A stretch of DNA of 64,000 nucleotides, taken from contig OY761614.1 of NCBI GenBank assembly GCA_963664825.1, forward strand, positions 2,784,001-2,848,000, in the 5' to 3' direction. Of the stretch, positions 2,599 to 15,554 are shown piece after piece (position 1 is the first letter of the stretch; every line of letters starts with the position of its first letter). The position numbers and the translations under genes are program-made. This DNA comes from an uncultured Holophaga sp. (GTDB lineage Bacteria; Acidobacteriota; Holophagae; Holophagales; Holophagaceae). The notes below the pieces were generated by a model that saw only the letters and a list, made by a program, of their open reading frames with translations, was not told the origin of the DNA and made no database searches.

Positions 2599-5466
2599 TC
2601 AGAAGCCGAGGCTCTTGAGTAGCAGGTTGAGATCGGCTTCGCCGACGGTGGCATCTCCATTCAGGCGAGAACGGCTGGTCGTTGTGCCCCAGTCCAGCGC
2701 CAGGGTGAGGATATCCCTGAGATCGAAGACCGCATCCCCATTCACATCCAGCGTCTTGACTGTGAGGACCGAGGTGGCGGTCTTGGTGGGGTATAGAGAA
2801 TTGGTGAGGGTCACTGTGGCGCTGGTATCGGTGAGTTGATTGGCAAAGGGGGGGGCCGTGTATGTGTTACTGAGTCCTGAGTCGGCACTCAGTGAACCCG
2901 GGCCTGAAAGGCTCCATCGGATGGTTCCGTTGCTGGTGGTGCCCGCGAGGGCCAAGGCTGCACCGTAAACCAGGGTGGCGGTGGGATGATCCACAGAGAG
3001 GGCTATTGTGGTCGGCTCCACCAGGGTGAGCGTGGCCGTGCCTGGCACATTGGGAGTCTCCACGGGTGTGGCCGTCAGGGTATAGATCCCGGCCGTGTTG
3101 CTGGTCGTCAGTGTGGTTGCCACGCCACTGGCGGTCTGGGGAGCATTGAAACTGCCCCCGCCAGCGCTGATGGTCCAGTTGACCCTGTTATCACTCTGGA
3201 AGTTGGAAAGGGTCGCAGTGAAGGGCAGCAATGCGCCGATGAGGGCCGTGGTGCTCGCGGGCAGGATGGTGGCCGTGGTGTTTGTGGTCCAGGAAACGTT
3301 ATCCACCCAAGCGCCATCGTTATCGGGAGCGCTAGCAAGATCCTTGGCGTAAGTCCAACGAAGCAAATGCGAACCTGCAGGAATGTTAAAGGTCTGCTGG
3401 GCAAAGTCGATGGTACCGCTGATTTTTCCGATCAATCCTCCTCCATCGACATTTGCGCTCTTTCCATCCACGTTAAAGGTGAGAAAGTCATAGTCGAGTT
3501 CGGAGTTTACTTTCCAGTAGAACGTCAGGATGCCCGGTCCTGTGACTCGTGTCTGGAGGTAGGTGCGGCTGCTATTCGGAATGACCGCGCTCCGGGCGCA
3601 ACTGCCGCCCAGATGTGAGGTGCTGGTGGTGGCGGTCCAGGGGCCCAGACTCGTGAACGTAAGATTGGCATTATCCAGCACCGCACGATCGAAGACGGGC
3701 AGCGCAATAGCTAGCGGGGCACTGGAATCGGACCAAGCGCTCTCCATGGAAAGACCATTCAGAACCGTCACCCGAGCATAAAGGGGAACGCCATCCTGCA
3801 CGCCCAGATCGGTGAGAGTCTTGGTCAGCGCATTGAATATGCGGCCATTGAAAATATCGCAGCCACCCAGCGATGTGCCCACCTGAAGGTGGTAGCCGGA
3901 GATGCCGGAATCGAGATCTACCGCATTCCCTTGGTTCCAGGTGAAGGTCATGGTGTCTTGCACGGTGGAAGCCACGGGCGCACTGGGGCGTCCCGTTGGC
4001 GGCGTCGGGTCGATGATCTGGGAAACATCGAAGGTCATGGTTGCGCCCGGATCCGAGATATTCTTTACGCCCATCCCCGTTGAAGCGCCGTCGTAGCGCA
4101 TGCTGTTGGGCAGGCTTGCGGGGCCAAAGGTCTTGCCGTTGATCCAGTAATCCCCGGCATTGACGTCAGCGGACAATGTTTCGATTTCCTCCAGGCCATC
4201 GGCCTCCATGAGACGTAGCAGCTTGTGGGCCGTGTAGGAGTTGTCGAATTGATAATCTGTGCCCGCGCTATTCAACCGCGAATCCACATGCCAGATCAGC
4301 AGGCCATCCGCAGGGTATTCCCTACTGGGATCGTTATCGTTCTGCACGCGCTGGCGGTTCTGGACCATGAAGAATTCTCCGAAGCTGCCGCCCGGATTGG
4401 TATCCATGATGACGGCGGCCTCGGGGGTGCTTCCTGAGGCCTGCAATGTCACACCTGGGGCGCCAGCGGTATAGACCGTGGGGGTGATCCAGTCTAATAA
4501 CCATTTGCTGAAGCAGTTATGGTCTCCCCAGTTGCCATGCATCATGTCCAGGCTTCCCACACCTCCCCCAGGGCCGACGGCGGTGTCGTAATCGTAGTAG
4601 TCGGGTAGGCCCAAGGCATGGCCCGTCTCATGGATGAGTACCCAGGGATCAAAATTTGGTGCCTTCCGGGTGGGGTAGCCCGCGTTGGAGACCCACTGCC
4701 AGACGTATTTCCCGAGAGTCTTTCCATTCAGCACGGGAGATGGGGTTTCGCTCCAGGCTGTCTGGTAGGCCCACCAGAAGTTGGCCCACCCGTTGTCGGG
4801 GCCTGTCCAGAGCACGGCGAAGAAATCAATCACGCCATCTCCGTTGTTGTCGTAATGGCTAAAGTCGTGTCCCACCTGAGCCTGCAAAGCCTCCCGGATG
4901 AGGTTCTCGCGCTGGGCATCCGTGGGATTGGTGCCCATGCTGGCACGGGTGTAGGAGGGCCGGTAGTAGGCCAGTACGTTTCCCGTCAGGGTGAGCAGAC
5001 CGTAGGAGGACCGGTAGTAGAAGCTCTTCAGGCTCTCGTAGGGAGCCGCCTGCACGCCATCGCCATCTCCGAAGATCCGCGAATCAATAGTCGCCGCCGT
5101 ATTGGCGGGGTCCGCGGGGTAGTCACTGAAATCGATCAGGAGCACGAACATCTTCGGCGTGCCCTTGGTGGGCATGCCTCGCCAGCTGCTGGGAGGGGCC
5201 GACAGGATCGAGGCTTGGTTGGGTATTTGCACGCCCTGGCTGGTCGCGAGGCTGCGCAAGCGCCGCTCCGCATCCAGAACCAGCTGGGGATCCACCCGAT
5301 GGTTCCCGATCCGTTCGGCCCGTTCCAGCCGTTTCTTCCATGTGCCATCGGCCTTGTACTGCCGGACCATCTCGGGGGTGGGGGGTGGCATGGCGGGCAG
5401 CCGCTGACCCAGGAGAACCATGAGCATTACGCCCACACTGAATAGGAATGACTTGGTGAGTTCCAC
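2599..5466 (-). CDS. M6 family (immune inhibitor A-like) secreted metalloprotease with FN3/Ig-like and dockerin-like C-terminal modules
   Basis: HETGHALGLPDYY zinc motif, MFVLLIDFSD, LDMMHG and GLLIWHVD motifs; C-terminal DVNGDAVFDLRD. Start placed at GTG 5466 (GGAG upstream); the ORF is open to 5613. Confidence 0.85.
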   Translation of the reverse strand: MELTKSFLFSVGVMLMVLLGQRLPAMPPPTPEMVRQYKADGTWKKRLERAERIGNHRVDPQLVLDAERRLRSLATSQGVQIPNQASILSAPPSSWRGMPTKGTPKMFVLLIDFSDYPADPANTAATIDSRIFGDGDGVQAAPYESLKSFYYRSSYGLLTLTGNVLAYYRPSYTRASMGTNPTDAQRENLIREALQAQVGHDFSHYDNNGDGVIDFFAVLWTGPDNGWANFWWAYQTAWSETPSPVLNGKTLGKYVWQWVSNAGYPTRKAPNFDPWVLIHETGHALGLPDYYDYDTAVGPGGGVGSLDMMHGNWGDHNCFSKWLLDWITPTVYTAGAPGVTLQASGSTPEAAVIMDTNPGGSFGEFFMVQNRQRVQNDNDPSREYPADGLLIWHVDSRLNSAGTDYQFDNSYTAHKLLRLMEADGLEEIETLSADVNAGDYWINGKTFGPASLPNSMRYDGASTGMGVKNISDPGATMTFDVSQIIDPTPPTGRPSAPVASTVQDTMTFTWNQGNAVDLDSGISGYHLQVGTSLGGCDIFNGRIFNALTKTLTDLGVQDGVPLYARVTVLNGLSMESAWSDSSAPLAIALPVFDRAVLDNANLTFTSLGPWTATTSTSHLGGSCARSAVIPNSSRTYLQTRVTGPGILTFYWKVNSELDYDFLTFNVDGKSANVDGGGLIGKISGTIDFAQQTFNIPAGSHLLRWTYAKDLASAPDNDGAWVDNVSWTTNTTATILPASTTALIGALLPFTATLSNFQSDNRVNWTISAGGGSFNAPQTASGVATTLTTSNTAGIYTLTATPVETPNVPGTATLTLVEPTTIALSVDHPTATLVYGAALALAGTTSNGTIRWSLSGPGSLSADSGLSNTYTAPPFANQLTDTSATVTLTNSLYPTKTATSVLTVKTLDVNGDAVFDLRDILTLALDWGTTTSRSRLNGDATVGEADLNLLLKSLGF

Positions 5467-6013
5467 GGAGCATCTCCGAGAGGCTTGGGCAAGTGGGAAA
5501 CCAGGGGAGCGGAATGGGGTCGAGGGCCATTTCTGGGCATCCTCGGAGGGAATTTGCTTTTGCCCAGGGAACGATTTGGGCGACCCACGGGATTGGATGC
5601 CGACCCTAAGCATATGTGAAAAACCTAATCGTAAATACGAATTTCGACTGCCTAATTCCTAACTCAAGGAAGGATCTTGAAGGCCTTTCCCGTGGATCAG
5701 GATCATCCTCCGGATCGAAGCACCGTCTCGTGATCTAGGGCCCGGAGTCTTGTGTTCTTCAAGTCATTCACCGACACGGCCTTTCGGGGATCTTTTCCGC
5801 AATGGTCGCGGATAACGGCGCGGAGCTGGGGATAAGGTGGTGCGATTTCAAGTCGGAAGGACACTGCACAGTTGCGAGTGCAGTGCCATCCCCGCGACCA
5901 TCGGCTAGCGGCAGGTTCCAGGTAGGGCACGGAGGGCAGCGCCGAATGAGCCCCGCCTCTACCGTCAAAATGCGGCAAATGCAGCCCTAGTCAAACCGGC
6001 TACATAGGCATCG

Positions 6014-6047
6014 AAAAGCCCCGAAACCAAGCGGTGACGGGGCTTTT
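6014..6047 (-). terminator. Rho-independent terminator just past the duplicated tRNA 3' end (probably the original tRNA-Thr terminator)
   Basis: AAAAGCCCCG...CGGGGCTTTT hairpin adjacent to the att repeat. Confidence 0.65.
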
Positions 6048-6050
6048 GAT

Positions 6051-6099
6051 TGGAGCCAACTATAGGATTCGAACCTACGACCTTCTGATTACGAATCAG
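6051..6099 (-). repeat. Attachment site: 49-bp duplicate of the tRNA-Thr 3' end
   Basis: 48/49 identical to 13963-14011; the single difference is T6084 vs G13996. Confidence 0.95.
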
Positions 6100-6187
6100 A
6101 AAGTCATGTTTCAATCATAATTGATAAAAGTTGAAAGTGTTGATACTGAAGATGTTATTTCGTTCAATATCGCAACTGTGTTCACCT

Positions 6188-6245
6188 TGGAACCGGTGGT
6201 TCCACCATGAAAGTGGAACCAGAGTAGAATTCAAAGTGGAACCAG
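6188..6245. promoter_or_regulatory. Cluster of (AAA)GTGGAACCA motifs, likely integrase arm-type sites
   Basis: AAAGTGGAACCAG at 6210-6222 and 6233-6245, an inverted copy TGGTTCCAC at 6197-6205, and the same motif at the other end of the element (13896-13918). Confidence 0.6.
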
Positions 6246-6260
6246 GAGGCTGGAGGGGGC

Positions 6261-7562
6261 ATGAGAAAGTCCGACCAAGAACTGACCACGACCATCTGCG
6301 AACGGACCAAGGCGACGGCCAAAAAACAATCCCTCTGGGATTCGAAAACCACCGGTCTTTGCCTGGTCATCACACCGATGAGGGAAGAGAAACGGGGCGG
6401 GAAGACCGTGACCATCGGCGGGGCCAAGACGTGGTATTTCGTGGCGCGCCGTGCTGATAAGCAGCTCTGGGTGAGGATTGGGGGCTTTGTCCCGAGGGGT
6501 GAGGGCTGGACGCTGGCGAGAGCCAGAACAGAAGCGGATCGCCTGCGCCTCATCCATGACCAGGGGCATGACGTGAAGGCGGCGAAGGCGAAGGAACGCA
6601 CACTTCCCACGGTGGCCAAGCTTGTTGAGGAATATAAAGAGGAGCTGCTTGGCAAGCTCAAGCCCAAGTCCCAGAAATGCGCAGAGGGATACCTGACACG
6701 CGAAATCCTGTCTCGCTTCAAGAATCGGTTGGTGGCTGAAATCGGCGTGGCAGACCTTCAGAAGATGCATGATGAGATTGCCGGGGCAGGGAAGCCATAC
6801 GCCGCCAATCGTGTGATAGCCGCTATGAGCAGGCTCTTGAACGTCGCGGAGAAGAAGGGTTGGCGTTCGATGGGGACGAACCCCACGACGCACGTCGAAC
6901 GAAGTCCTGAAACGGCGAGAAAGACGGTTCTTGATGTTGAGGGCTACGCTGCCACGGAGGTGGCCCTGGTGAAGCTTTGTGCCAAACCAGGGAAGCTTGA
7001 AGGACGCCGCCCATTCCGTCCCGCCGCCGCTGATGCGATTCGCTTCCTTGCCCTGACAGGGCTACGGCTGAATGAAGCTCTGCACCTGACATGGGCCGAT
7101 GTGGATCTGGTGAAGGGTTTCATGGTCATCCGTGACCACAAGACGGTCAAACAGCATGGGGAACGAACCCTTCCGCTCAACTCTCACGCCCTGGCCATCG
7201 TGAAGGCGCGAGAGGGGAAGAGCGTTAGCCCTTACATCTTCTGGGGCAAGCCCAGCGCCAAACAGGTGTTCAAGCCCTTCGTGGGGCTCCAACATGCCTG
7301 GGAACGTGTTCGAGAAGAGGCGAAGCTAGGCGATCTTCGGCTTCACGACTTCCGCAGGAGCTTCAACAGCGTGGCCGCAGAGCTGGGATACCCCGCCGCT
7401 GTGTTTGATACCCTTCTGGGCCATGCTCTGCCTGGAGTCCAGCAGGTCTACACCCGCTTGAATGTGGCTGGCATCCTCGCCACTGCCTCTCAGGACGTGG
7501 GCGACTGGATCAAGGCCGCGATGGATGGGCAGGCGCCGAAGCTGGGAGAGAAGCGGGTCTGA
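6261..7562 (+). CDS. int: Tyrosine recombinase / phage integrase (P4-like, with N-terminal arm-binding domain)
   Basis: Catalytic set R (LTGLRLNE), K (DHKT), HxxR (HDFRR), H (LLGH) and Y (QVY); N-terminal WDSKTTGL...GAKTW arm-binding-type segment; adjacent to att. Confidence 0.95.
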   Translation: MRKSDQELTTTICERTKATAKKQSLWDSKTTGLCLVITPMREEKRGGKTVTIGGAKTWYFVARRADKQLWVRIGGFVPRGEGWTLARARTEADRLRLIHDQGHDVKAAKAKERTLPTVAKLVEEYKEELLGKLKPKSQKCAEGYLTREILSRFKNRLVAEIGVADLQKMHDEIAGAGKPYAANRVIAAMSRLLNVAEKKGWRSMGTNPTTHVERSPETARKTVLDVEGYAATEVALVKLCAKPGKLEGRRPFRPAAADAIRFLALTGLRLNEALHLTWADVDLVKGFMVIRDHKTVKQHGERTLPLNSHALAIVKAREGKSVSPYIFWGKPSAKQVFKPFVGLQHAWERVREEAKLGDLRLHDFRRSFNSVAAELGYPAAVFDTLLGHALPGVQQVYTRLNVAGILATASQDVGDWIKAAMDGQAPKLGEKRV

Positions 7563-7583
7563 AGCCCAAGAAGGCACAAAGTA

Positions 7584-7612
7584 GGCCCCCATCCGACGAA
7601 GGACTGGGGGCC
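7584..7612 (+). terminator. Hairpin downstream of the integrase
   Basis: GGCCCCCA...TGGGGGCC inverted repeat. Confidence 0.4.
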
Positions 7613-7739
7613 AATTTAGGGTTGTGATGAGAACCACGGAACCATAAGTTCAGAAAAACAGGATGGATGTGAATCACGCAAAAAAGCGCTTGCATCTATT
7701 CTTGATCGATCCTATCTTTAGGTGTCGAGAAGGATTCGA

Positions 7740-8201
7740 ATGGGAAGGAAGAAGCTCGAAGAGGACCAAAAGAGGGTTTCTATTACGGTTCGTCTCCATC
7801 CAGAGGCACGAGAAATTGTAGAATCAATTTTGGATGCATTTAATAAAATAGCAATTGCATGCCCAGGACTACCATTGCTCTGGAAGGATTCACCCGCAGG
7901 GGAATGGCCTAATTCGAGATCCGATGCTGTAAATTGGTTATTGAGAAGAAGTGATCATACCGTTAATTGGATATTGAGACCACTAGCATCAGCCGCTATA
8001 GCTGGATTGGAAAATCAAAAAACTATCAAAATTATTAAAATATTAAAAGATGCTCTTGCTGATGGCAAAGACACTGAGCTTAAAACAATGGTTAACGCTG
8101 TAGAAATGTTCCTTGTGAATAAGGATGAAAACATAAGGGCAGACAAAGAACGGGTAAAGCAGTTGATAATAATATCAAAACAAGTTCAAGAGGAGACGTA
8201 A
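7740..8201 (+). CDS. Hypothetical protein with a ribbon-helix-helix-like N-terminus (possible regulator); AT-rich
   Basis: MGRKKLEEDQKRVSITVRLHPEAREIVESI; GAAGGA before ATG 7740; visibly lower GC than its flanks. Confidence 0.55.
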   Translation: MGRKKLEEDQKRVSITVRLHPEAREIVESILDAFNKIAIACPGLPLLWKDSPAGEWPNSRSDAVNWLLRRSDHTVNWILRPLASAAIAGLENQKTIKIIKILKDALADGKDTELKTMVNAVEMFLVNKDENIRADKERVKQLIIISKQVQEET

Positions 8202-8359
8202 ATAAAAGCTTCCCCCCATATCTGCCCAGTCTTGGCGGACGACAGAAGTGGGGGGGACCGAGCAGCACACCAAAGCACTAGCACCGGCTCCCCAATGATG
8301 GGCCAAGGGAACACCCGGTGCAACCTTCACGGCCCATCATCGCGGAAGGAATACCATCA

Positions 8360-8584
8360 ATGAAACCTCTCACCCCCAACATCCCGGCCCTGCCGACCCC
8401 GCAGGACTACCTGACCAGTCGTGAACTGGGCCTTCAATACCGCATGTCCTGAGCCTACCTGAGCATGATGAGGTGCCGTGGCGAAGGCCCCCGCTTCATG
8501 CGTCTTGGAGTGCGGAAGGTGCTCTACCTCCGTGCGGATGTGGAAGCCTGGATCCAGGCCCACGCGGTCGAAACGGCGAGCTAG
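8360..8584 (+). pseudogene. xis: Excisionase / AlpA-HTH_17-type protein interrupted by an in-frame TGA (8450-8452)
   Basis: My translation (absent from the ORF track): MKPLTPNIPALPTPQDYLTSRELGLQYRMS*AYLSMMRCRGEGPRFMRLGVRKVLYLRADVEAWIQAHAVETAS*; GGAAGGA RBS upstream. Confidence 0.8.
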
Positions 8585-8597
8585 GGGGATCACGACA

Positions 8598-9023
8598 ATG
8601 ACGACCACGAATAGCAAGACCACGCCGAAGGCCTGCCCGGAATTGAACACCATCACCCAAGGGGCCAGAAAGGGACTGCCCCTCTCCCGTCCTTGGGATG
8701 GGATCGGGATCAATACCTTCAGCCGAACCCATAGGAAGGTTCCAGCGCCTCAGACCTGCATCATTCCCGAACTCTGGGAAGCCGGAGAGGAACACTCGGT
8801 GATCTTGGCAGGTGACCGCGGTTCCCTTCCAGGGTGGCTCTTCGTCCCTGGTGACACGCTGCTTGACGGCTCTCCCGCCGTGCTTCTACTCCCGCGCCGA
8901 GCGACCCGAGCAACCCAGCGTGAAGCCCTCTTTGCGATCCGAGATTTCTACCACGCTCAGAACCTCATGGAGCGAAGACGCCAGAAAGCGGAACTGCTCG
9001 ACGTTGAAGTTGACCCGGGCTGA
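8598..9023 (+). CDS. Hypothetical element protein
   Basis: ATG 8598 with AGGGGG upstream, directly after xis; 141 aa. Confidence 0.55.
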   Translation: MTTTNSKTTPKACPELNTITQGARKGLPLSRPWDGIGINTFSRTHRKVPAPQTCIIPELWEAGEEHSVILAGDRGSLPGWLFVPGDTLLDGSPAVLLLPRRATRATQREALFAIRDFYHAQNLMERRRQKAELLDVEVDPG

Positions 9024-9072
9024 GAAGCACACGCATTCAATCGAAATCAATCATCCAATCGGAGAGATACCA

Positions 9073-9369
9073 ATGAAGACCATCACCGCTTACCGCTGCG
9101 AACACTGTGCCCCTGGACACGGCAGGCCCTATGCCTCCGCAAGCTCCTGCAAGGCCCATGAGGCCCGGTGTCATGACAACCCGGCCTCCCACTCCTGCGC
9201 TACCTGCCGGTTTAAGGCACAGCGTGATGTCGGTGCCCCGGCCGCATTCCAAAAGGAATACCCGGGCGCGACGACGCTGGAATACTTCTGCCAGGCCAAG
9301 AAGCCCGGAAAGTGCCTCACCACGCTTTGCCCGTCCTGGAAGCTGCGAGTGGATGAGGTCTCGGAATGA
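9073..9369 (+). CDS. Small Cys/His-rich (zinc-finger-like) phage-type protein
   Basis: YRCEHC...SCKAHEARCHDNP...SCATC; GGAG RBS; ATGA overlap with the next gene. Confidence 0.65.
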   Translation: MKTITAYRCEHCAPGHGRPYASASSCKAHEARCHDNPASHSCATCRFKAQRDVGAPAAFQKEYPGATTLEYFCQAKKPGKCLTTLCPSWKLRVDEVSE

Positions 9370-10310
9370 GGGACCTTCCAATCAGTTCAATCCGCATGGA
9401 TGGAGGCACTCAAACCCGCGCCGCCTTGGATTCAACGACCTGTGCTGAATACGCCGATGCGATGAAGGCCGGGGCCATCTTCCCGCCCGTCACCGTGTTC
9501 CATGACGGCACCGATTACTGGCTTGCCGACGGCTTCCATCGTGTGGAAGGGGCCCGCCTAGCAGGGCTCCAGGACATCCCCGCCGAGATCCGGCAGGGAA
9601 CCCAGCGCGATGCCCGTCTCTTCGCCGTGGGGGCCAATCAGACCCATGGCTTGCGCCGGACCAATGCCGACAAGCGCCGCGCCGCCTCCGCCCTCCTCGA
9701 TGACCCCGAGTGGAGCCAATGGTCAGACCGGGAGATTGCCCGCCGATGCGGAGTCTCCAATCAATTTGTCTCAAACATGCGATCCGAGCGGGTGTCAACC
9801 GTTGACACCCCGAGGGTGTCATCCAATGACACTCCCGAGGTGGCCACGGTTGAAGCCTGGATCCCTGCCCCCAACTTTGGGGCGCATGGAAAGTGCGCGG
9901 TGGATGGGGTGCGATGGGACGCCTTCATCATGCCCTCAGAATCTTTCGAGTCATCGTCCCGTAGGAATGTGGATGGAAACGACTACCTGTATGTCGTGGT
10001 GACGAAGATTGCCCCCAGCGGAGCAGGTGAAGTCATGGGCACGAAGAGGCCGATCCATAGGAACTTCGTCACTCGAGGGCTTAAAGAAGAGTCCTTCCCC
10101 CTCGCGGAGGCTGCATGGGATCAATTCCCCGTGTCCGACGAACCCGATGGTGAGGAATTGACCTTCGAGAAGCGCTGGTCATGGCCTCACCTGGTTTTTG
10201 AAACCCATCGGGATTGGATGGATCAAGAGCGTTGGTGGACGCTACCCCATGACGACCCGGCCTATCTGGACGCAATCAAGGCTCGAACGCTTTCAGGAGC
10301 GCCGGAATGA
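9366..10310 (+). CDS. ParB/Srx N-terminal domain + HTH protein (phage-type ParB-like)
   Basis: GGTQTRA, FPPVTVF, WLADGFHR and ANQTHGLRRT motifs; HTH SDREIARRCGVSNQFVSNMR. Confidence 0.85.
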   Translation: MRDLPISSIRMDGGTQTRAALDSTTCAEYADAMKAGAIFPPVTVFHDGTDYWLADGFHRVEGARLAGLQDIPAEIRQGTQRDARLFAVGANQTHGLRRTNADKRRAASALLDDPEWSQWSDREIARRCGVSNQFVSNMRSERVSTVDTPRVSSNDTPEVATVEAWIPAPNFGAHGKCAVDGVRWDAFIMPSESFESSSRRNVDGNDYLYVVVTKIAPSGAGEVMGTKRPIHRNFVTRGLKEESFPLAEAAWDQFPVSDEPDGEELTFEKRWSWPHLVFETHRDWMDQERWWTLPHDDPAYLDAIKARTLSGAPE

Positions 10311-10519
10311 GCGGATCCAGACTTCTTCTTCAGCCCGCCGTCTGGCCACACCTCGCGCTCAATCCCGAGCCCTTCGGCACCTCCATGGACCCGGATTCCA
10401 TCGAACGCTGGTATCAGGAGATCCTGCACATGGAGCCCGAACCCGCCCCCTGTCACCTCCCGAAGCCGCAACCCGTTCGCCGCTCGGGAGGTGGCCACTA
10501 CTTTCAGCGGAGGCGGTGA
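10307..10519 (+). CDS. Small hypothetical protein
   Basis: Overlaps both neighbours (ATGA and TGATG), consistent with translational coupling. Confidence 0.5.
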   Translation: MSGSRLLLQPAVWPHLALNPEPFGTSMDPDSIERWYQEILHMEPEPAPCHLPKPQPVRRSGGGHYFQRRR

Positions 10520-11598
10520 TGGCGAGACGACCTAGCTTCCAGTTTTACCCTGGCGATTACGCAGCCAATACCAACTTGCGCCGCTGCACCCATGAGGAGA
10601 AGGGGGTCAACATGGACTTCCTTTGTCTCGCACATGACAGCGATGAATACGGGATTGTGCGCTGGCCCTTGAAGGAACTGGCCCAGGCCATCGGCTGCAA
10701 GGCATCAATCCTTGTCGCTCTCGTGAACAAGAACGTCATCAAGGGAGCCGACGAAGGGACGATGTGTGATGTCTTCGTGTTCACCCCTTGCCATGCGGGG
10801 CAGCGTGGGCTTCCTGTGGAGCTGATACCAGAGCAGCCGGGACCACTCTGGTATTCCAGTCGCATGGTGCGAGACGAATACGTGAGGCAGAACCGAGGGA
10901 AGGCCAGCCGGTTTATCAGTGAAGGTGGACAACCCCCCGATGACTCACCCAACCCGTCACCAATGCCCCCACCAATGCCCCCCTTTGGAGACGGCTCTTC
11001 ATCTTCATCTTCATCTTCATCTTCATCTTTTAATCCTTTGCTTCGCTCGGATTCTGCCCCCAGCCAGGGAGGGGAAAATCATGGGTCGAACCCCGATCCC
11101 GTGCTCCTGGCTCTTCTCTGGTTTGCGAAGGTGGCAGACGCCCGCCGTCAAGTTGAGAGCCTGGACCGTTCCAAAGTGGTCCAGGCCGCATTCGCCCTTG
11201 CGGATCGCGGGGATGAGGTATGGCCTGAAGTGTTCTTGAACTCAGTCACAGTGACACTTCCCGGTAATACCGCCGTTGAAATTACAGCGCGCTACCAGAA
11301 GGCCGTAGCCGGTGAACAGGTCGCCATTCTCGAACAGGCTGAAGATGCCCTTGCGGAAGTGAAGACCATCATTGGTTGTGCCGAACTCTCGTTATCGGTT
11401 GCGTTCAATCGGGTGGGACTCGGAAGCGACTGGAAGCAGGTTCGAACCGCCGACATCGTGAAGGCTTGGCCCCAGGCCACGAAGGCTTCGTTCATCGCCG
11501 CCAATGGCGAGGAAGCCTATACCGCGCTCTTGCAGGGCAGGCTTGGCCTTGAAGCCGCATTGGGCCTGTTCCGGCCCGGACTCGTGAAGGAGAACTAG
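10519..11598 (+). CDS. Phage-type replication initiator (DUF1376/YdaU-like N-terminus)
   Basis: MARRPSFQFYPGDY...LRRCTHEEKG...SDEYG, WYSSRMVRDE, then a Pro-rich/poly-Ser linker; GGAGG RBS. Confidence 0.75.
   Translation: MARRPSFQFYPGDYAANTNLRRCTHEEKGVNMDFLCLAHDSDEYGIVRWPLKELAQAIGCKASILVALVNKNVIKGADEGTMCDVFVFTPCHAGQRGLPVELIPEQPGPLWYSSRMVRDEYVRQNRGKASRFISEGGQPPDDSPNPSPMPPPMPPFGDGSSSSSSSSSSSFNPLLRSDSAPSQGGENHGSNPDPVLLALLWFAKVADARRQVESLDRSKVVQAAFALADRGDEVWPEVFLNSVTVTLPGNTAVEITARYQKAVAGEQVAILEQAEDALAEVKTIIGCAELSLSVAFNRVGLGSDWKQVRTADIVKAWPQATKASFIAANGEEAYTALLQGRLGLEAALGLFRPGLVKEN
10945..11029 (+). repeat. Iteron-like 12-nt repeats plus a (TCTTCA)5 tract inside the replication gene (candidate origin)
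   Basis: TCACCCAACCCG/TCACCAATGCCC/CCACCAATGCCC, then TCTTCA x5 at 10996-11025. Confidence 0.5.
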
Positions 11599-11600
11599 CC

Positions 11601-11894
11601 ATGGCCATTGACTGGGAAAATGCCAAGACAGTCTACCGGAAAGACACCGGTGAAGCGTGTTCCTTGCCTGAGAGTGAATTCAATAAGCTTCGGGATATGC
11701 CTTGGCTGTACTCGAACGGCCTGCTTTCAATCCATCCGGTGAAAAATCCGCCGAAGAAGGCCCCTCATAGCTGGATTCCGAAATTGGATGACTCGCCCAA
11801 GGCCCCACAGGTCAAAACGGAACCCGAGAACCCGCTCGACCCCCCGCCCATGGACCCGAAGCCAGGTGCCGACTGGAAAGACTTGGTGGGCTGA
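11601..11894 (+). CDS. Hypothetical protein
   Basis: AAGGAG upstream; starts 2 nt after the replication gene stop. Confidence 0.55.
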   Translation: MAIDWENAKTVYRKDTGEACSLPESEFNKLRDMPWLYSNGLLSIHPVKNPPKKAPHSWIPKLDDSPKAPQVKTEPENPLDPPPMDPKPGADWKDLVG

Positions 11895-11899
11895 TTCGC

Positions 11900-12148
11900 A
11901 TGAGCCGCCGCGCCTGGGCCTTCGCATCCACCACACCGCCGCCCCGCTTCGTCCTGGTGCCCTCGTTTAATGACGGGACACCAGAGGCACAGGCAGAACT
12001 TAGCGCCTTCCTGGAGGCTCACCAGGGAGCCCAGGTGCTGGTTTGCCGAAGGGTGGACGGGCGCATCAATCGAGAAAAGAGGAACCCATGGCGTCACTGC
12101 CCGGAGGGATACGGGTTTAGGGCTTGCATCATGTGTGACAATCTCTGA
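11900..12148 (+). CDS. Hypothetical protein
   Basis: In-operon position; C-terminal Cys pattern; no recognised family. Confidence 0.4.
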   Translation: MSRRAWAFASTTPPPRFVLVPSFNDGTPEAQAELSAFLEAHQGAQVLVCRRVDGRINREKRNPWRHCPEGYGFRACIMCDNL

Positions 12149-12185
12149 TAGCCAACCTGCCTAACATGGATCTGGAGGAGCATCC

Positions 12186-12635
12186 GTGACCGCCCCCAAG
12201 TATCAAGTGCAAGACGTTGCTAAGTATTTCCTCGCTTTGGTTGATCGTGAGGTGGACGCAATCGACCACCTCAAGCTTCAGAAACTGTGCTATTACGCCC
12301 AAGGCTTTCACCTTGCCTTGACTGATGCTCCTCTTTTCCCAGAGGCCATCGAGGCTTGGCCTCATGGTCCCGTGTGCCCCGATCTCTATCATCAATTCAA
12401 AGAATATGGGCGGGGGCCAATCCCGGAGGATCCTGATTTTGACACGTCTCTCTTTGATGACACCGCTAAGTCAATCATCGAGGAGGTTTACGATGTGTAT
12501 GGGCAGTACACCGGGTGGAAGCTCCGGAACATCACCCACGCAGAGCCTACCTGGAAGTCTGCAATTGCTCGGGATAACAAAACAATTACCTTCGAAGAGA
12601 TGGCGACATTTTTTAAGACCCAAATTGAAGCGTAA
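12186..12635 (+). CDS. Panacea-domain antitoxin (SocA/DUF4065/GepA family)
   Basis: VAKYF...HLKLQKLCYYAQG...LFPEAIEAWPHGPV...L.N.TH.E.W signature; GGAGGAG RBS. Confidence 0.9.
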   Translation: MTAPKYQVQDVAKYFLALVDREVDAIDHLKLQKLCYYAQGFHLALTDAPLFPEAIEAWPHGPVCPDLYHQFKEYGRGPIPEDPDFDTSLFDDTAKSIIEEVYDVYGQYTGWKLRNITHAEPTWKSAIARDNKTITFEEMATFFKTQIEA

Positions 12636-13042
12636 TGAACCAAATTAAGCGCCCCAAATCCAACGACGGTCAACGGATCAAAAGCCCTACCATAGGAGTC
12701 TCATCGGACGATCAAAAGCCTGCGTTTTCTCTTGAGCACATGGTCTCGGGTCGGTGCCTCAGAGACTGTATAAAAGACGAAAAAGCCGCTTTTGCAATGG
12801 CCCTTCTGGAAAGAAGTTCAAGCACATGGAAGGAGTTGCGCATGGCACCCCGTCACGGGTTGGGGTACGAGCGCATTGAGAAAAATGCAATAAAGTGTGG
12901 GATCCCCTCGGTGGTCCCAGACGACACAGACCTCATCGCCTTTCGTTTTGCAGGGAACGCGCCGATGGTCGGCTATAGGAAAGAACGGACGTTTTTCATT
13001 CTATGGCTGGACCGTGACTTTACGCTCTACGACCACGAATAG
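12635..13042 (+). CDS. Putative cognate toxin (RelE-like / MAG6450-like nuclease)
   Basis: TAATG overlap with the antitoxin; C-terminal FRF.G...MVGYR...FFILWLDRDFTLYDH pattern. Confidence 0.65.
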   Translation: MNQIKRPKSNDGQRIKSPTIGVSSDDQKPAFSLEHMVSGRCLRDCIKDEKAAFAMALLERSSSTWKELRMAPRHGLGYERIEKNAIKCGIPSVVPDDTDLIAFRFAGNAPMVGYRKERTFFILWLDRDFTLYDHE

Positions 13043-13278
13043 GAAGTGATGGGGGCGGATGAAATTCCGGTCACCAATAGGCAGAGGCCCCCAGTGATGG
13101 GGGCTTTGTCGTGCTGGGAGTTCTCCCCAAATTCGGAAGAAACCTTGCCCCTGGAACTTCTGCTCATTTTTGAGAAAAAGCCCATGCGCGCGCGGGGACG
13201 GCAAAGGACGGATAATCCGGCCTTTGAACCCGCACCGCCGTGGTGTTCCCAAATGTGGGATATTCCCACATTTGATCC

Positions 13279-13758
13279 GTGAGCCCCCTCGCCTATGCGT
13301 TCTCCCGGCAGGCGGATCGTCGGAATACCACCGATGCCGACATCATGCGGGCGGTGGGGGTCATCGATAACCGGAAGAGCCGGACGGACAACCTGAAGCA
13401 CGGCCAAGAAACCCCCGATACGCCATGTGGCGTATCGGGAAACCCCGCACCACCATTGGATCTACAAAACCAGGCATCGGCCAAAAAACCCCGCTCCAGC
13501 TCCCAGACCGCCAAGATTATCGGGGTATCCGAGCGCAAGGTGGAGCGGGTTCGGACAATCGCGGATCGTGCGCTATTTGAAGCCCTTCGCCCGCGCGCGC
13601 GGGGATGGTCCGACCTGCATCGCGCCCCGCTACGGATCCTGGTTCCTTCGCCCGCGCGCGCGGGGATGGTCCGTCTGAGCCCACCCGGGAAGCAACCCCA
13701 GGACCCCTTCGCCCGCGCGCGCGGGGATGGTCCCCAGGAGTTCCATCATTTGAAATGA
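13279..13758 (+). CDS. Truncated ParB-like HTH protein whose 3' part runs through the CRISPR repeats
   Basis: YAFSRQADRRNTTDADIMRAV and HTH SQTAKIIGVSERKVERVRTI. Sequence after about 13583 is translated repeat/spacer. No clear RBS, so it may be a remnant. Confidence 0.5.
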   Translation: MSPLAYAFSRQADRRNTTDADIMRAVGVIDNRKSRTDNLKHGQETPDTPCGVSGNPAPPLDLQNQASAKKPRSSSQTAKIIGVSERKVERVRTIADRALFEALRPRARGWSDLHRAPLRILVPSPARAGMVRLSPPGKQPQDPFARARGDGPQEFHHLK

Positions 13759-13856
13759 CGGAACCCCTCCTCTCCCCTCGCCCGCGGGGATAGGGGGATA
13801 ACATCCGTAGTTTGGATGTCATCGGTAGGCCTCTCTCCGCGCGCGGGGATGCTGGG
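13584..13856 (+). CRISPR. Cas-less type I-E-like CRISPR mini-array: 3 conserved + 2 degenerate repeats, 4 spacers
   Basis: CCTTCGCCCGCGCGCGCGGGGATGGTCC(G/C) at 13584-13612, 13645-13673 and 13706-13734 (61-nt period, 32-nt unique spacers); degenerate copies at 13769-13797 (20/29) and 13830-13856. Confidence 0.9.
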
Positions 13857-13925
13857 TGCTCACCGAATCCGGGGACCTCAAAACCAGCCTGCCTGAAAGT
13901 GGAATGGAAGTGGAACCAAAACAAA

Positions 13926-13948
13926 ACAGCCACCCGGGCGGTGGCTGT
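13926..13948 (-). terminator. Element-supplied terminator downstream of the intact tRNA-Thr
   Basis: ACAGCCACC/GGTGGCTGT stem followed on the minus strand by TTTGTTTT. Confidence 0.65.
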
Positions 13949-13962
13949 AAGTGTTGTAATGA

Positions 13963-14038
13963 TGGAGCCAACTATAGGATTCGAACCTACGACCTGCTGA
14001 TTACGAATCAGCTGCTCTACCAACTGAGCTAAGTTGGC
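13963..14038 (-). tRNA. tRNA-Thr (CGT)
   Basis: 76-nt cloverleaf GCCAACTTAGCTCAGTTGGTAGAGCAGCTGATTCGTAATCAGCAGGTCGTAGGTTCGAATCCTATAGTTGGCTCCA; encoded CCA. Confidence 0.97.
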
Positions 14039-14225
14039 CCGGACGAGCCAGTGTGCCAGAAGAGTCACCCGGGCTCAAGGGGTGAGTGATCGGGGCCTCG
14101 AAGGGGGCTCGAGAGGAATGCGCTCTCAGAGAGGGCTCCTTGTGACCTCTCGTCACGAAGTCTATACGTGCCTGTCACGAGGTGGTGCTAGGCTTCGTCC
14201 CATCACCACTTCAATGGGGAGTCCC

Positions 14226-15554
14226 ATGGTCGCATCCGCCAAGAAGGTCTTCGTCCTGGACACCAATGTCCTGCTTCATGATCCCCAGGCGATCTTTCAC
14301 TTCCAGGAGCACGACATCGTGATCCCCATCGTCGTGATCGAGGAAATCGATACCTTCAAGAAGGACCAGACCGAGATCGGACGGAACGCCCGCTCCGTTT
14401 CCCGGCAGTTGGACAAACTGAGGGCCCTCGGCACCCTCAGTCAGGGTGTGACCCTGGAAGGGGGTGGGATCCTGAAGGTGGATGTAACGCCCTATCGCCA
14501 GGATCTGGGTTTCTCCACCCTGGACAAGCACAAGGCGGATAACCAGATCTTGGCCTGCGCCATGGCCCTGCTCAAGGAACGCAAGGAGAAGGTGATACTG
14601 GTCAGCAAGGATACGAACGTGCGCATCAAGGCCGATGCTGCGGGGCTGTTGGCCGATGACTACAACACGGACCGGGTGGAGATGGACGGGCTCTATACGG
14701 GCACGGCCCAGTGGGATGTGGAAGGGGTTCAGATCGATCTCGTCTATGAAGGTGGTTTGGTGCCCGATGAGGCACACCCCCTCCATCCCAATCAGTTCGT
14801 CACGCTGGTGGATCGCGCCAATGACAGCCATACGGCCGTGGGGCGCTTCTACGCCGCCGATAACCGCATCCATCCCCTCAAGCGCACGGAACAGCCGCCC
14901 TGGGGCATCAAGGCCCGGAATCGGGAGCAGCAGTTCGCCCTGGAACTCCTCCTGGATGATTCGATCCAGGTCGTCACCCTGCTGGGCAAGGCAGGCACCG
15001 GCAAGACTCTGCTCGCCATCGCCGCGGGCCTGCAACAAGTGGTGGACGACGAACGCTACAACAAGCTCCTGGTGAGCCGTCCCGTGATGCCCATGGGCCG
15101 CGACCTGGGCTTCCTCCCCGGGGATATTGAGGAGAAGCTCCGGCCCTACATGCAGCCCATCTACGACAACCTGGATTTCATCGTGTCGGCCAATACCGAG
15201 ATGAGGCGGCGTTCCACCATGACCGTGGGCCAGCTGGAGGAAGGCGGCTATCTCAGCGTCGAGCCCCTGACCTATATCCGCGGCCGCAGCATCCCGAATC
15301 AGTATCTCATCGTAGACGAGGCCCAGAACCTGACGCCCCATGAGATCAAGACCATCCTCACCCGGGCCGGGGAGGGCACGAAGATCGTGCTCACCGGTGA
15401 CCCTCACCAGATCGACAACCCCTATGTGGATGCCAGCACCAACGGCCTCAGCTACCTAGCCGAGCACTTCAAACACCTAGCCCTCTCGGGCCATGTGACC
15501 CTGACCAAGGGCGAACGCTCCCCCATGGCCGAACTGGCCAGCAATCTCCTCTGA
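14226..15554 (+). CDS. PIN-PhoH (PhoH2/YlaK-type) protein
   Basis: FVLDTNVLLHDP PIN start, Walker A GKAGTGKT, IRGRSI and DEAQN motifs. Confidence 0.92.
   Translation: MVASAKKVFVLDTNVLLHDPQAIFHFQEHDIVIPIVVIEEIDTFKKDQTEIGRNARSVSRQLDKLRALGTLSQGVTLEGGGILKVDVTPYRQDLGFSTLDKHKADNQILACAMALLKERKEKVILVSKDTNVRIKADAAGLLADDYNTDRVEMDGLYTGTAQWDVEGVQIDLVYEGGLVPDEAHPLHPNQFVTLVDRANDSHTAVGRFYAADNRIHPLKRTEQPPWGIKARNREQQFALELLLDDSIQVVTLLGKAGTGKTLLAIAAGLQQVVDDERYNKLLVSRPVMPMGRDLGFLPGDIEEKLRPYMQPIYDNLDFIVSANTEMRRRSTMTVGQLEEGGYLSVEPLTYIRGRSIPNQYLIVDEAQNLTPHEIKTILTRAGEGTKIVLTGDPHQIDNPYVDASTNGLSYLAEHFKHLALSGHVTLTKGERSPMAELASNLL

Follow-up and report, generated by a model that had tools for sequence, protein, structure and literature searches.

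The 64 000-nt window analysed here (the whole stretch at positions 2 784 001–2 848 000 of contig OY761614.1, from an uncultured Holophaga sp.) contains a 7.9-kb integrase-bearing island with attachment (att) repeats at both borders. At the tRNA-proximal end of this island lies a CRISPR array, which is a real type I-E array without cas genes. We put at roughly 60% the reading that this is an old island-borne array that was extended in place by the Cas1-Cas2 of the host, and that its CRISPR RNAs (crRNAs) probably fail to drive interference, a spacer derived from the host itself being tolerated.

The array consists of three 29-nt repeats starting at 13584, 13645 and 13706, a period of 61 nt in both steps, with two unique 32-nt spacers (S1 and S2) between them and two degenerate repeats behind them. 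This is the arrangement reported in an earlier sequence-only note on this DNA (the original prediction), and S1 and S2 read as quoted there. Repeats 1 and 2 read CCTTCGCCCGCGCGCGCGGGGATGGTCCG, and repeat 3 ends in C where the other two end in G. The array and the gene directly upstream of it are laid out as follows.

13279–13583, plus strand: helix-turn-helix gene, whose frame continues into the array and reaches its stop at 13758
13584–13612, plus strand: repeat 1, the leader-side copy, 28 nt plus a G that is assigned to the spacer
13613–13644, plus strand: spacer S1, 32 nt, no source found
13645–13673, plus strand: repeat 2
13674–13705, plus strand: spacer S2, 32 nt, a host chromosome copy with an AGG flank
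13706–13734, plus strand: repeat 3, with the C end, probably the ancestral repeat plus the ancestral next base
13735–13768, plus strand: older unit S3, 34 nt, containing a 25-nt near-perfect palindrome
13769–13797, plus strand: decayed repeat 4, 69% identical to the reference repeat
13798–13829, plus strand: older unit S4, an inverted repeat with a longest stem of 8 at no more than one mismatch
about 13830–13858, plus strand: decayed repeat 5, in which the 14-mer CGCGCGCGGGGATG is retained

The geometry of 29 + 32 nt (or 28 + 33 nt) with a period of 61 nt is that of type I-E, as had been predicted, and the array of the host is built alike. The motif GCGGGGAT reappears 63 and 122 (2 × 61) bases past its position in repeat 3, and the copy at +122 indicates that the 2 × 61 register has been retained. 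The last decayed repeat ends ∼105 nt short of the tRNA. When up to three mismatches were allowed, the 24-base core of the repeat was found only at the three array sites in the 3.47-Mb genome. The adjacent cas genes and AT-rich leader that are usual for type I-E arrays are both missing here; repeat 1 is preceded by the 3′-terminal part of a coding region, in line with the predicted lack of a leader. A 16-mer at 13186–13201, 407 nt upstream of repeat 1, agrees with the repeat core at 15 of 16 positions and may be a chance match or a further decayed repeat.

The original prediction had advised searching the genome for a type I-E cas locus and comparing its repeat. A complete type I-E operon was found on the same contig, 2.3 Mb from the island array, with open frames for cas3, cse1, cse2, cas7, cas5, cas6e, cas1 and cas2 at ∼461–469.7 kb. 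Each gene scored above its curated NCBIfam cut-off, which in the case of cas3 means that two domain models passed and the full-length model did not. Matches to the Cas1, Cas6e and Cas7e families were confined to one genomic site each, at 465.9–469.1 kb, while the window spans 2784–2848 kb, so that its 64 kb are free of cas genes as stated before. The operon is followed by the main array of the host, with 109 repeats and 108 spacers, every one of them 32 nt long. The host repeat, CCGTTCCCCGCACACGCGGGGATGATCCG, is identical to the island repeat at 23 of 29 positions; the six departures, at positions 3, 5, 6, 12, 14 and 25, are common to all three island repeats. The main array aside, nothing in the genome other than island repeats 1 and 2 comes within six mismatches of the host repeat.

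Searching for the sources of the spacers, which had also been proposed, succeeded for S2 but not for S1. S2 is identical to the host chromosome over 32 of 32 bases (G000:C1:1700705-1700736, minus strand) and over 33 of 33 with the preceding G, and the protospacer is directly preceded by AGG. In the type I-E system of Escherichia coli, AGG belongs to the interfering group of protospacer-adjacent motifs (PAMs), and it is one of the five non-AAG PAMs selected most frequently during naive adaptation, as described in PMC6568314. The protospacer overlaps the end of an AhpC/TSA peroxiredoxin gene, beginning two bases ahead of its stop codon, and extends into an adjoining intergenic hairpin with a 16-bp stem, beyond which lies an AhpD-like gene from the carboxymuconolactone decarboxylase family. 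In five of eight congeners the peroxiredoxin gene end aligned at 85–91%, and the hairpin segment was missing in the four aligned congeners. Since the protospacer straddles this junction of conserved and lineage-specific sequence, its position indicates that S2 was copied from the chromosome of this lineage and not from a free mobile piece.

The boundaries within the array are those left by type I-E adaptation. In E. coli, each integration step adds 61 bp, of which 28 bp are copied repeat and 33 bp are spacer (as given in PMC11788318), and the first base of the spacer is the G of the PAM (as given in PMC7054753). Parsed in this way, the island array reads 28 bp, G + S1, 28 bp, G + S2, 28 bp and then C + older sequence, and the G preceding S2 is present in the chromosomal source. 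The G after repeats 1 and 2 and the C after repeat 3 are thus explained if a G enters with each 33-bp spacer and the C is the ancestral base. Because the six departures from the host repeat are common to all three repeats, the template repeat would already have carried them. With a single Cas1 locus in the genome, the simplest reading is that the host Cas1-Cas2 integrated twice, and the sequence bears clear signs of such an extension in place.

Under the reading we favour, the island would carry an array of type I-E descent that is old and decayed, represented by repeats 3, 4 and 5, and on two occasions in this host lineage the host Cas1-Cas2 would have integrated at the first of these repeats. 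Each event would copy 28 bp of repeat and add a 33-bp spacer whose first base is the PAM G, and two events would yield the three identical repeats with S1 and S2. S2 would have been captured from the host chromosome as in unprimed adaptation; by array order, S1 was acquired after S2. The array is probably co-transcribed with the upstream helix-turn-helix gene, given that the frame of this gene enters the array and that no plus-strand terminator-like site was found between the two.

These data bear directly on whether the region is a CRISPR in the first place. That it is instead a tandem repeat arisen by chance, or a region of protein-binding repeats, could be supposed from the palindromic, operator-like S3 and S4 and from an Rfam search, in which the tRNA was the sole match and no CRISPR-repeat family was returned. 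Against this stand the period of exactly 61 nt and the likeness to the host repeat, which is unmatched elsewhere outside the main array. The exact chromosomal source of S2, with its PAM and G signature, brings such a reading close to refuted, and we regard it as extremely improbable.

The departures of the island repeat fall partly on positions that the family does not vary. T5, C6 and A25 are invariant in 7/7 family arrays (the host and six relatives; seven loci were fetched, one of which gave no consensus); variation among these arrays is seen in the loop and at positions 3, 4 and 26. The island repeat has C5, G6 and G25 instead. In RNAfold predictions, the host repeat formed a clean 7-bp stem, and the island repeat formed a stem in which G6 is bulged with two pairs below it. 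The original prediction was therefore right that a G stands where C is usual, but not that the stem is simply shortened to 5 bp. Position 25 of the repeat is position −5 of the crRNA 5′ handle, and E. coli Cascade makes base-specific contacts with the handle at −7, −5, −3 and −2, with both handle sequence and handle length mattering, according to PMC4288178. The 3′ strand of the stem is intact in the island repeat and seven of the eight handle bases are those of the host. A type I-E crRNA from the island array would be expected to be 61 nt long with the 5′ start AUGGUCCG.

No spacer of the main array is comparable to S2. Of the 108 host spacers, not one matches the genome over its full length, the closest cases being 23/25 and the exact 17-mers of eight spacers. 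A perfect self-match with a usable PAM has thus survived in the island array, S1 was gained later and the main array is without a self-match, from which we infer that the island crRNAs are poorly made or loaded. They would be cut inefficiently by Cas6e or would not load well into Cascade, and the self-match would for this reason be tolerated beside intact cas genes. The original prediction had the element use the host type I-E system in trans. This holds in that the host system is complete and that adaptation appears to have crossed over to the island (S2 at 33/33 with AGG), but the changed Cas6e- and Cascade-contact positions and the tolerated self-spacer argue against effective use of Cascade.

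The weapon proposed earlier would require exactly such use: host Cas6e, Cascade and Cas3 would turn the island crRNAs on a competitor or helper phage through S1, and S2 would be an accident kept harmless in some other way. The complete host system, the kept 3′ strand of the stem with its 7/8 handle bases, and the sense orientation of the array behind an island gene with no terminator between are all compatible with it, and viral mini-arrays aimed at related viruses are known from PMC11656645. If the array worked, however, its perfect self-target with an AGG flank should be lethal, and the repeat differs from that of the host at family-invariant positions. S1 offers no target either. Its best match in the own genome is an exact 17-mer in a ubiE-like methyltransferase gene (G000:C1:1694881-1694897), which is at chance level, as exact 17-mers occur for 8/108 host spacers, and the S1 seed is unmatched there. 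S1 was also unmatched in 60 relatives, in 50 697 phage records and, as an exact sequence, in IMG/VR, and neither S1 nor S2 matched the sibling island or the second island described below. The sole target found is the host chromosome, which does not fit the predicted phage or competitor. Nor is the suggested satellite nature of the island supported, since domain and phrog searches of its proteins found no helper-hijacking genes for capsid, packaging or primase-type replication. We consider the weapon reading unlikely; it is not supported by what could be tested. The 17-mer site of S1 lies only 5.8 kb from the S2 target.

Several points weigh against the extension-and-silence reading that we favour. 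GAAG is all that the sequence before repeat 1 has in common with the host leader, which leaves recognition of the site unexplained. The source of S1 is missing from all of the collections searched. The longest inverted repeats are 11 in S3, 8 in S4, 4 in S1 and 5 in S2, against a maximum of 7 in any of the 108 host spacers (at no more than one mismatch), so that the palindromes of S3 and S4 exceed all host spacers, which a plain decayed array would not predict. Transcription, processing and interference failure of the island array are all deduced from sequence, and an anti-CRISPR protein or repressed cas genes would explain tolerance of the self-match equally well. No related island with an unexpanded array was found among 60 relatives, metagenomes and 157 genomes of the class. 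Finally, protospacers of the host spacers, which would show the PAM preference of this system, were sought without success in the own genome, the phage records and 133 family genomes; the searches of the latter two collections with the host array gave only other arrays and a repeated end element. An element of ∼50 nt lies just beyond the end of the host array (L026 about 6840-6893; G000:C1 about 476340-476393) and recurs at 82–92% in many relatives, often at contig ends, which suggests that it is the end of a mobile element.

A second array with a 61-nt period was found on another island of the same genome. This island, unrelated to the first, is 9.1 kb long, lies at a tRNA-Arg (∼1.866–1.876 Mb) and contains, besides a 51-nt att repeat and an integrase, one HTH_17 gene and one gene of the RepB_primase/DUF3631 type. 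It carries three copies of a 28–33-nt unit with an exact period of 61 nt (G000:C1:1873469-1873651; L010 7469-7651), which resembles the host repeat weakly. Parsed as 28 + 33, every following unit begins with G. The 28 bases past the third copy are identical to part of a Rha-type antirepressor gene of one Gordonia phage cluster (13 records, best E 1e-4); the first matching base coincides with the 28-nt boundary, the flank in the phage is GAG and no fourth repeat follows the matching bases. A remnant of a Rha-like gene was considered as the cause of this match and rejected, as no Rha domain was found around it. The 33-mer was not found in IMG/VR, and the array region was missing from related islands of two relatives. 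Stems of 11 were present both in the first unit and in the unit past the third copy (at no more than one mismatch; L010 7497-7651). Taken from its sequence and with less certainty than for the first island, this array looks like the product of type I-E-type integration on a mobile island. The phage-matching bases with their GAG flank could also be counted in favour of the weapon reading.

Another possibility is that the array serves as an RNA decoy or as a sink: its variant repeats would occupy Cas6e and Cascade subunits, or the array would divert Cas1-Cas2 integrations from the main array to a harmless place. Repeat mimics on mobile elements inhibit type I-E and I-F systems in the cases described in PMC10651486, and arrays of crRNA-like RNAs on prophages silence type I-E systems in those described in bioRxiv 10.1101/2024.10.29.618823. 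The island repeat is a near-mimic with changed contact positions, and the tolerated self-spacer would be an integration without a lethal outcome. The array also follows a helix-turn-helix gene with a palindrome before its start, a layout which we take to recall that of anti-CRISPR loci. On the other side, the spacers have the full length of 32 nt, compared with 21–24 nt for the spacer-like parts of published regulatory RNAs, PAM-proximal matches in the cas locus are at chance, no known anti-CRISPR family was found among the island proteins, and the array is missing from the sibling and related islands and so is not a conserved part of them. We judge a decoy or sink to be quite unlikely. About as unlikely is the wider form of the sink, in which the islands of this genome carry arrays that the host Cas1-Cas2 can still write into but whose crRNAs, owing to the variant repeats, are of no use to Cas6e and Cascade. 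If true, new memories, including those of the island itself, would go to a dead file, and Cas6e might also be occupied; this would be an anti-CRISPR strategy at the memory step, with the tolerated self-spacer and the 61-nt array of the second island as its footprints.

The match of the spacers to the cas locus was at chance level. In 14.7 kb around the locus, PAM-proximal runs of at least 8 numbered 1, 3, 0 and 1 for the four spacers, where ∼1.8 were expected for each, and the longest runs were 9 (S1), 10 (S2) and 8 (S4), none of them at a cas promoter with a PAM. A regulatory array of the Cracr type was rejected on this seed scan and on the spacer length of 32 nt.

Control of host genes by S2 was also considered. 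In this case Cascade guided by S2 would sit at the junction of the peroxiredoxin and AhpD-like genes and alter their expression to the benefit of the island. The match does lie at an operon junction, and mobile-element arrays that repress host genes by self-targeting are known for type IV-A, as described in PMC11656645. However, a perfect match with a usable PAM beside an intact cas3 predicts cutting and not mere binding, known regulatory crRNA-like RNAs, as far as they have been described, use partial matches, and no conservation speaks for selection. Moreover, the S2 crRNA would pair with the template strand inside the operon, which is the weaker arrangement for a block of transcription. We regard this reading as very unlikely.

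The island array falls among known kinds, namely mini-arrays or orphan arrays of mobile elements, off-target or trans integration, and self-targeting spacers, and it differs from each in some respect. Like the mini-arrays of viruses and other mobile elements, it is short and Cas-less with a host-related repeat, and Cas proteins would have to act in trans. The published mini-arrays described in PMC11656645 have repeats identical to those of the host and spacers most of which match related viruses, unlike the 23/29 repeat here and S2, the only sourced spacer, which matches the host chromosome. The same source describes plasmid type IV-A3 arrays that gain spacers in trans through the type I-E adaptation module of the host. 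These resemble the island in that an array on a mobile element is extended by host Cas1-Cas2, but such plasmids carry their own effector genes and the island has no cas gene. As in chromosomal self-targeting, a perfect match to the own genome exists beside intact cas genes; here, however, S2 is in a separate island array with variant repeats, and the 108-spacer main array has no self-match. In E. coli, off-target spacer integration by type I-E Cas1-Cas2 reportedly gave rise to neo-CRISPR loci (Nivala, Shipman and Church, 2018). The island array shares with these its place off the main array, the steps of 61 bp, the copied 28-bp flank, the PAM G as first spacer base and a spacer from own DNA. 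It differs in that the site was not ordinary DNA but a repeat-like remnant of an older array with two decayed repeats in register (+63 and +122).

Two kinds of inhibitory or regulatory RNA were also compared. The RNA anti-CRISPRs (Racr) described in PMC10651486 are solitary repeat units on phages and plasmids. The island array is likewise a repeat mimic on a mobile element for which targeting is not required, but a Racr is a single unit without a full spacer and the island has three repeats and 32-nt spacers; inhibition is a candidate function only, and a Racr-type decoy is possible by this analogy. Cracr arrays, as described in bioRxiv 10.1101/2024.10.29.618823, are phage-borne crRNA-like RNAs that silence cas promoters; the spacer-like part is 21–24 nt in the one characterised there, and the arrays were selected for at least nine PAM-proximal matches to host regulatory RNAs targeting cas promoters. 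They too are of type I-E with two or three spacers and slightly altered repeats, on prophages and plasmids, in contrast to the 32-nt island spacers, which have no cas-promoter match with a PAM.

The array thus provides a natural genome case suggesting that host adaptation enzymes can write into an array on a mobile island, and that a perfect self-derived spacer can persist in an island array while the main array holds none. It raises the question whether repeat variants unsuited to crRNA processing and Cascade loading are still accepted by spacer integration. Should integration indeed be the more tolerant step, such arrays would be silent records or sinks, and mini-arrays on mobile elements should not always be taken for weapons.

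The array is not conserved across its island family. A sibling island beside tRNA-Ser(GGA) at 2.52 Mb of the same genome (G000:C1:2519300-2530400; L025 about 3265-14400) is 98.5% identical to the window over 2.5 kb (8606–11114), has no array and instead carries an AlpA-like gene at its tRNA end. In 60 relatives, the array region had no match except for a 40-nt tRNA terminator module. A 466-aa protein encoded on the island, to which domain and phrog searches assigned no family, had no match in IMG/VR and, in 133 family genomes, only partial relatives besides the sibling island. The helix-turn-helix protein gave seven weak 26-residue matches in metagenomes, two weak ones in 157 genomes of the class and one 71% homologue, which is encoded on a 15.5-kb contig. 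Contigs with the locus from sequencing runs had an identical array or were broken at the repeats, one being identical over 11085–13992; they came from four run assemblies (contigs only) with two organism labels and two studies, which may not be independent. One of the four is labelled as RNA but probably represents DNA. Beside the sibling island, seven or eight dispersed repeat copies (126-nt and 33-nt families) lie 300–1000 nt apart (L025 15989-19491).

The repeat itself is similarly rare. The exact 24-mer core had no match in 185 579 species genomes or in the metagenome collection. A looser form retaining the odd G was found at no fewer than 119 loci, at least, and among the matches listed every locus had a single match and no array. 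A plasmid search gave only repeat-level likeness to type I-E arrays, chiefly on Streptomyces plasmids. With the host repeat as query, stretches resembling it were found in phages of Streptomyces and Saccharomonospora and in one further phage record, and phage-borne type I-E-like repeats therefore exist in public records.

The island was predicted to be bounded by att sites, with the array ∼105 nt from the tRNA, and a 49-nt direct repeat (48/49) together with the integrase bears this out. Besides the array, its content is an integrase, a ParB-like gene, a toxin–antitoxin pair, the helix-turn-helix gene and genes without assigned function, and all genes between the att copies are on the plus strand. 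The remaining features are as follows.

6051–6099, no strand: left att copy, corresponding to a 3′ piece of tRNA-Thr in displaced position, 48/49 identical to the right copy by direct-repeat search and alignment
6208–6229, plus strand: candidate arm-type site of the integrase (TGAAAGTGGAAC...), with copies near the right end at 13894–13926
6261–7562, plus strand: tyrosine integrase gene (Phage_integrase 1.9e-18, Arm-DNA-bind_3; phrog_1 3.7e-45)
8606–11114, plus strand: 2.5-kb module with the ParB-like gene (9366–10310) and most of the 466-aa gene, the part shared with the sibling island at 98.5%
12186–12635, plus strand: SocA/Panacea-type antitoxin gene (SocA_Panacea 1.6e-22), followed by its partner gene at 12635–13042 (phrog_1281, phrog_8366)
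13926–13948, minus strand: terminator hairpin of tRNA-Thr
13963–14011: right att copy, the 3′ 49 nt of tRNA-Thr(CGT), 48/49 identical to the left copy
13963–14038, minus strand: tRNA-Thr(CGT)

Judged by their placement, the motif at 6208–6229 and its right-end copies may be integrase arm sites. The helix-turn-helix frame was compared with a diverged metagenome contig, in which 12 of 18 differences fell at third codon positions (hand count), and with a 108-aa homologue that is 71% identical and begins to diverge right after the helix-turn-helix; both comparisons indicate that the frame is a real gene. Directly 5′ of its start, at 13247–13275, is a perfect 11-bp inverted repeat, CAAATGTGGGA ... 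TCCCACATTTG, which is likely an operator. Within the gene, the minus strand has a 13-bp hairpin followed by a T-rich tail (13412–13441), which would stop antisense transcription arriving from the tRNA side. The 40-nt terminator hairpin module past tRNA-Thr (13922–13962) has copies of 85–88% identity past tRNA genes, including those of different tRNAs, in four congeners (L012, L013, L014 and L017).

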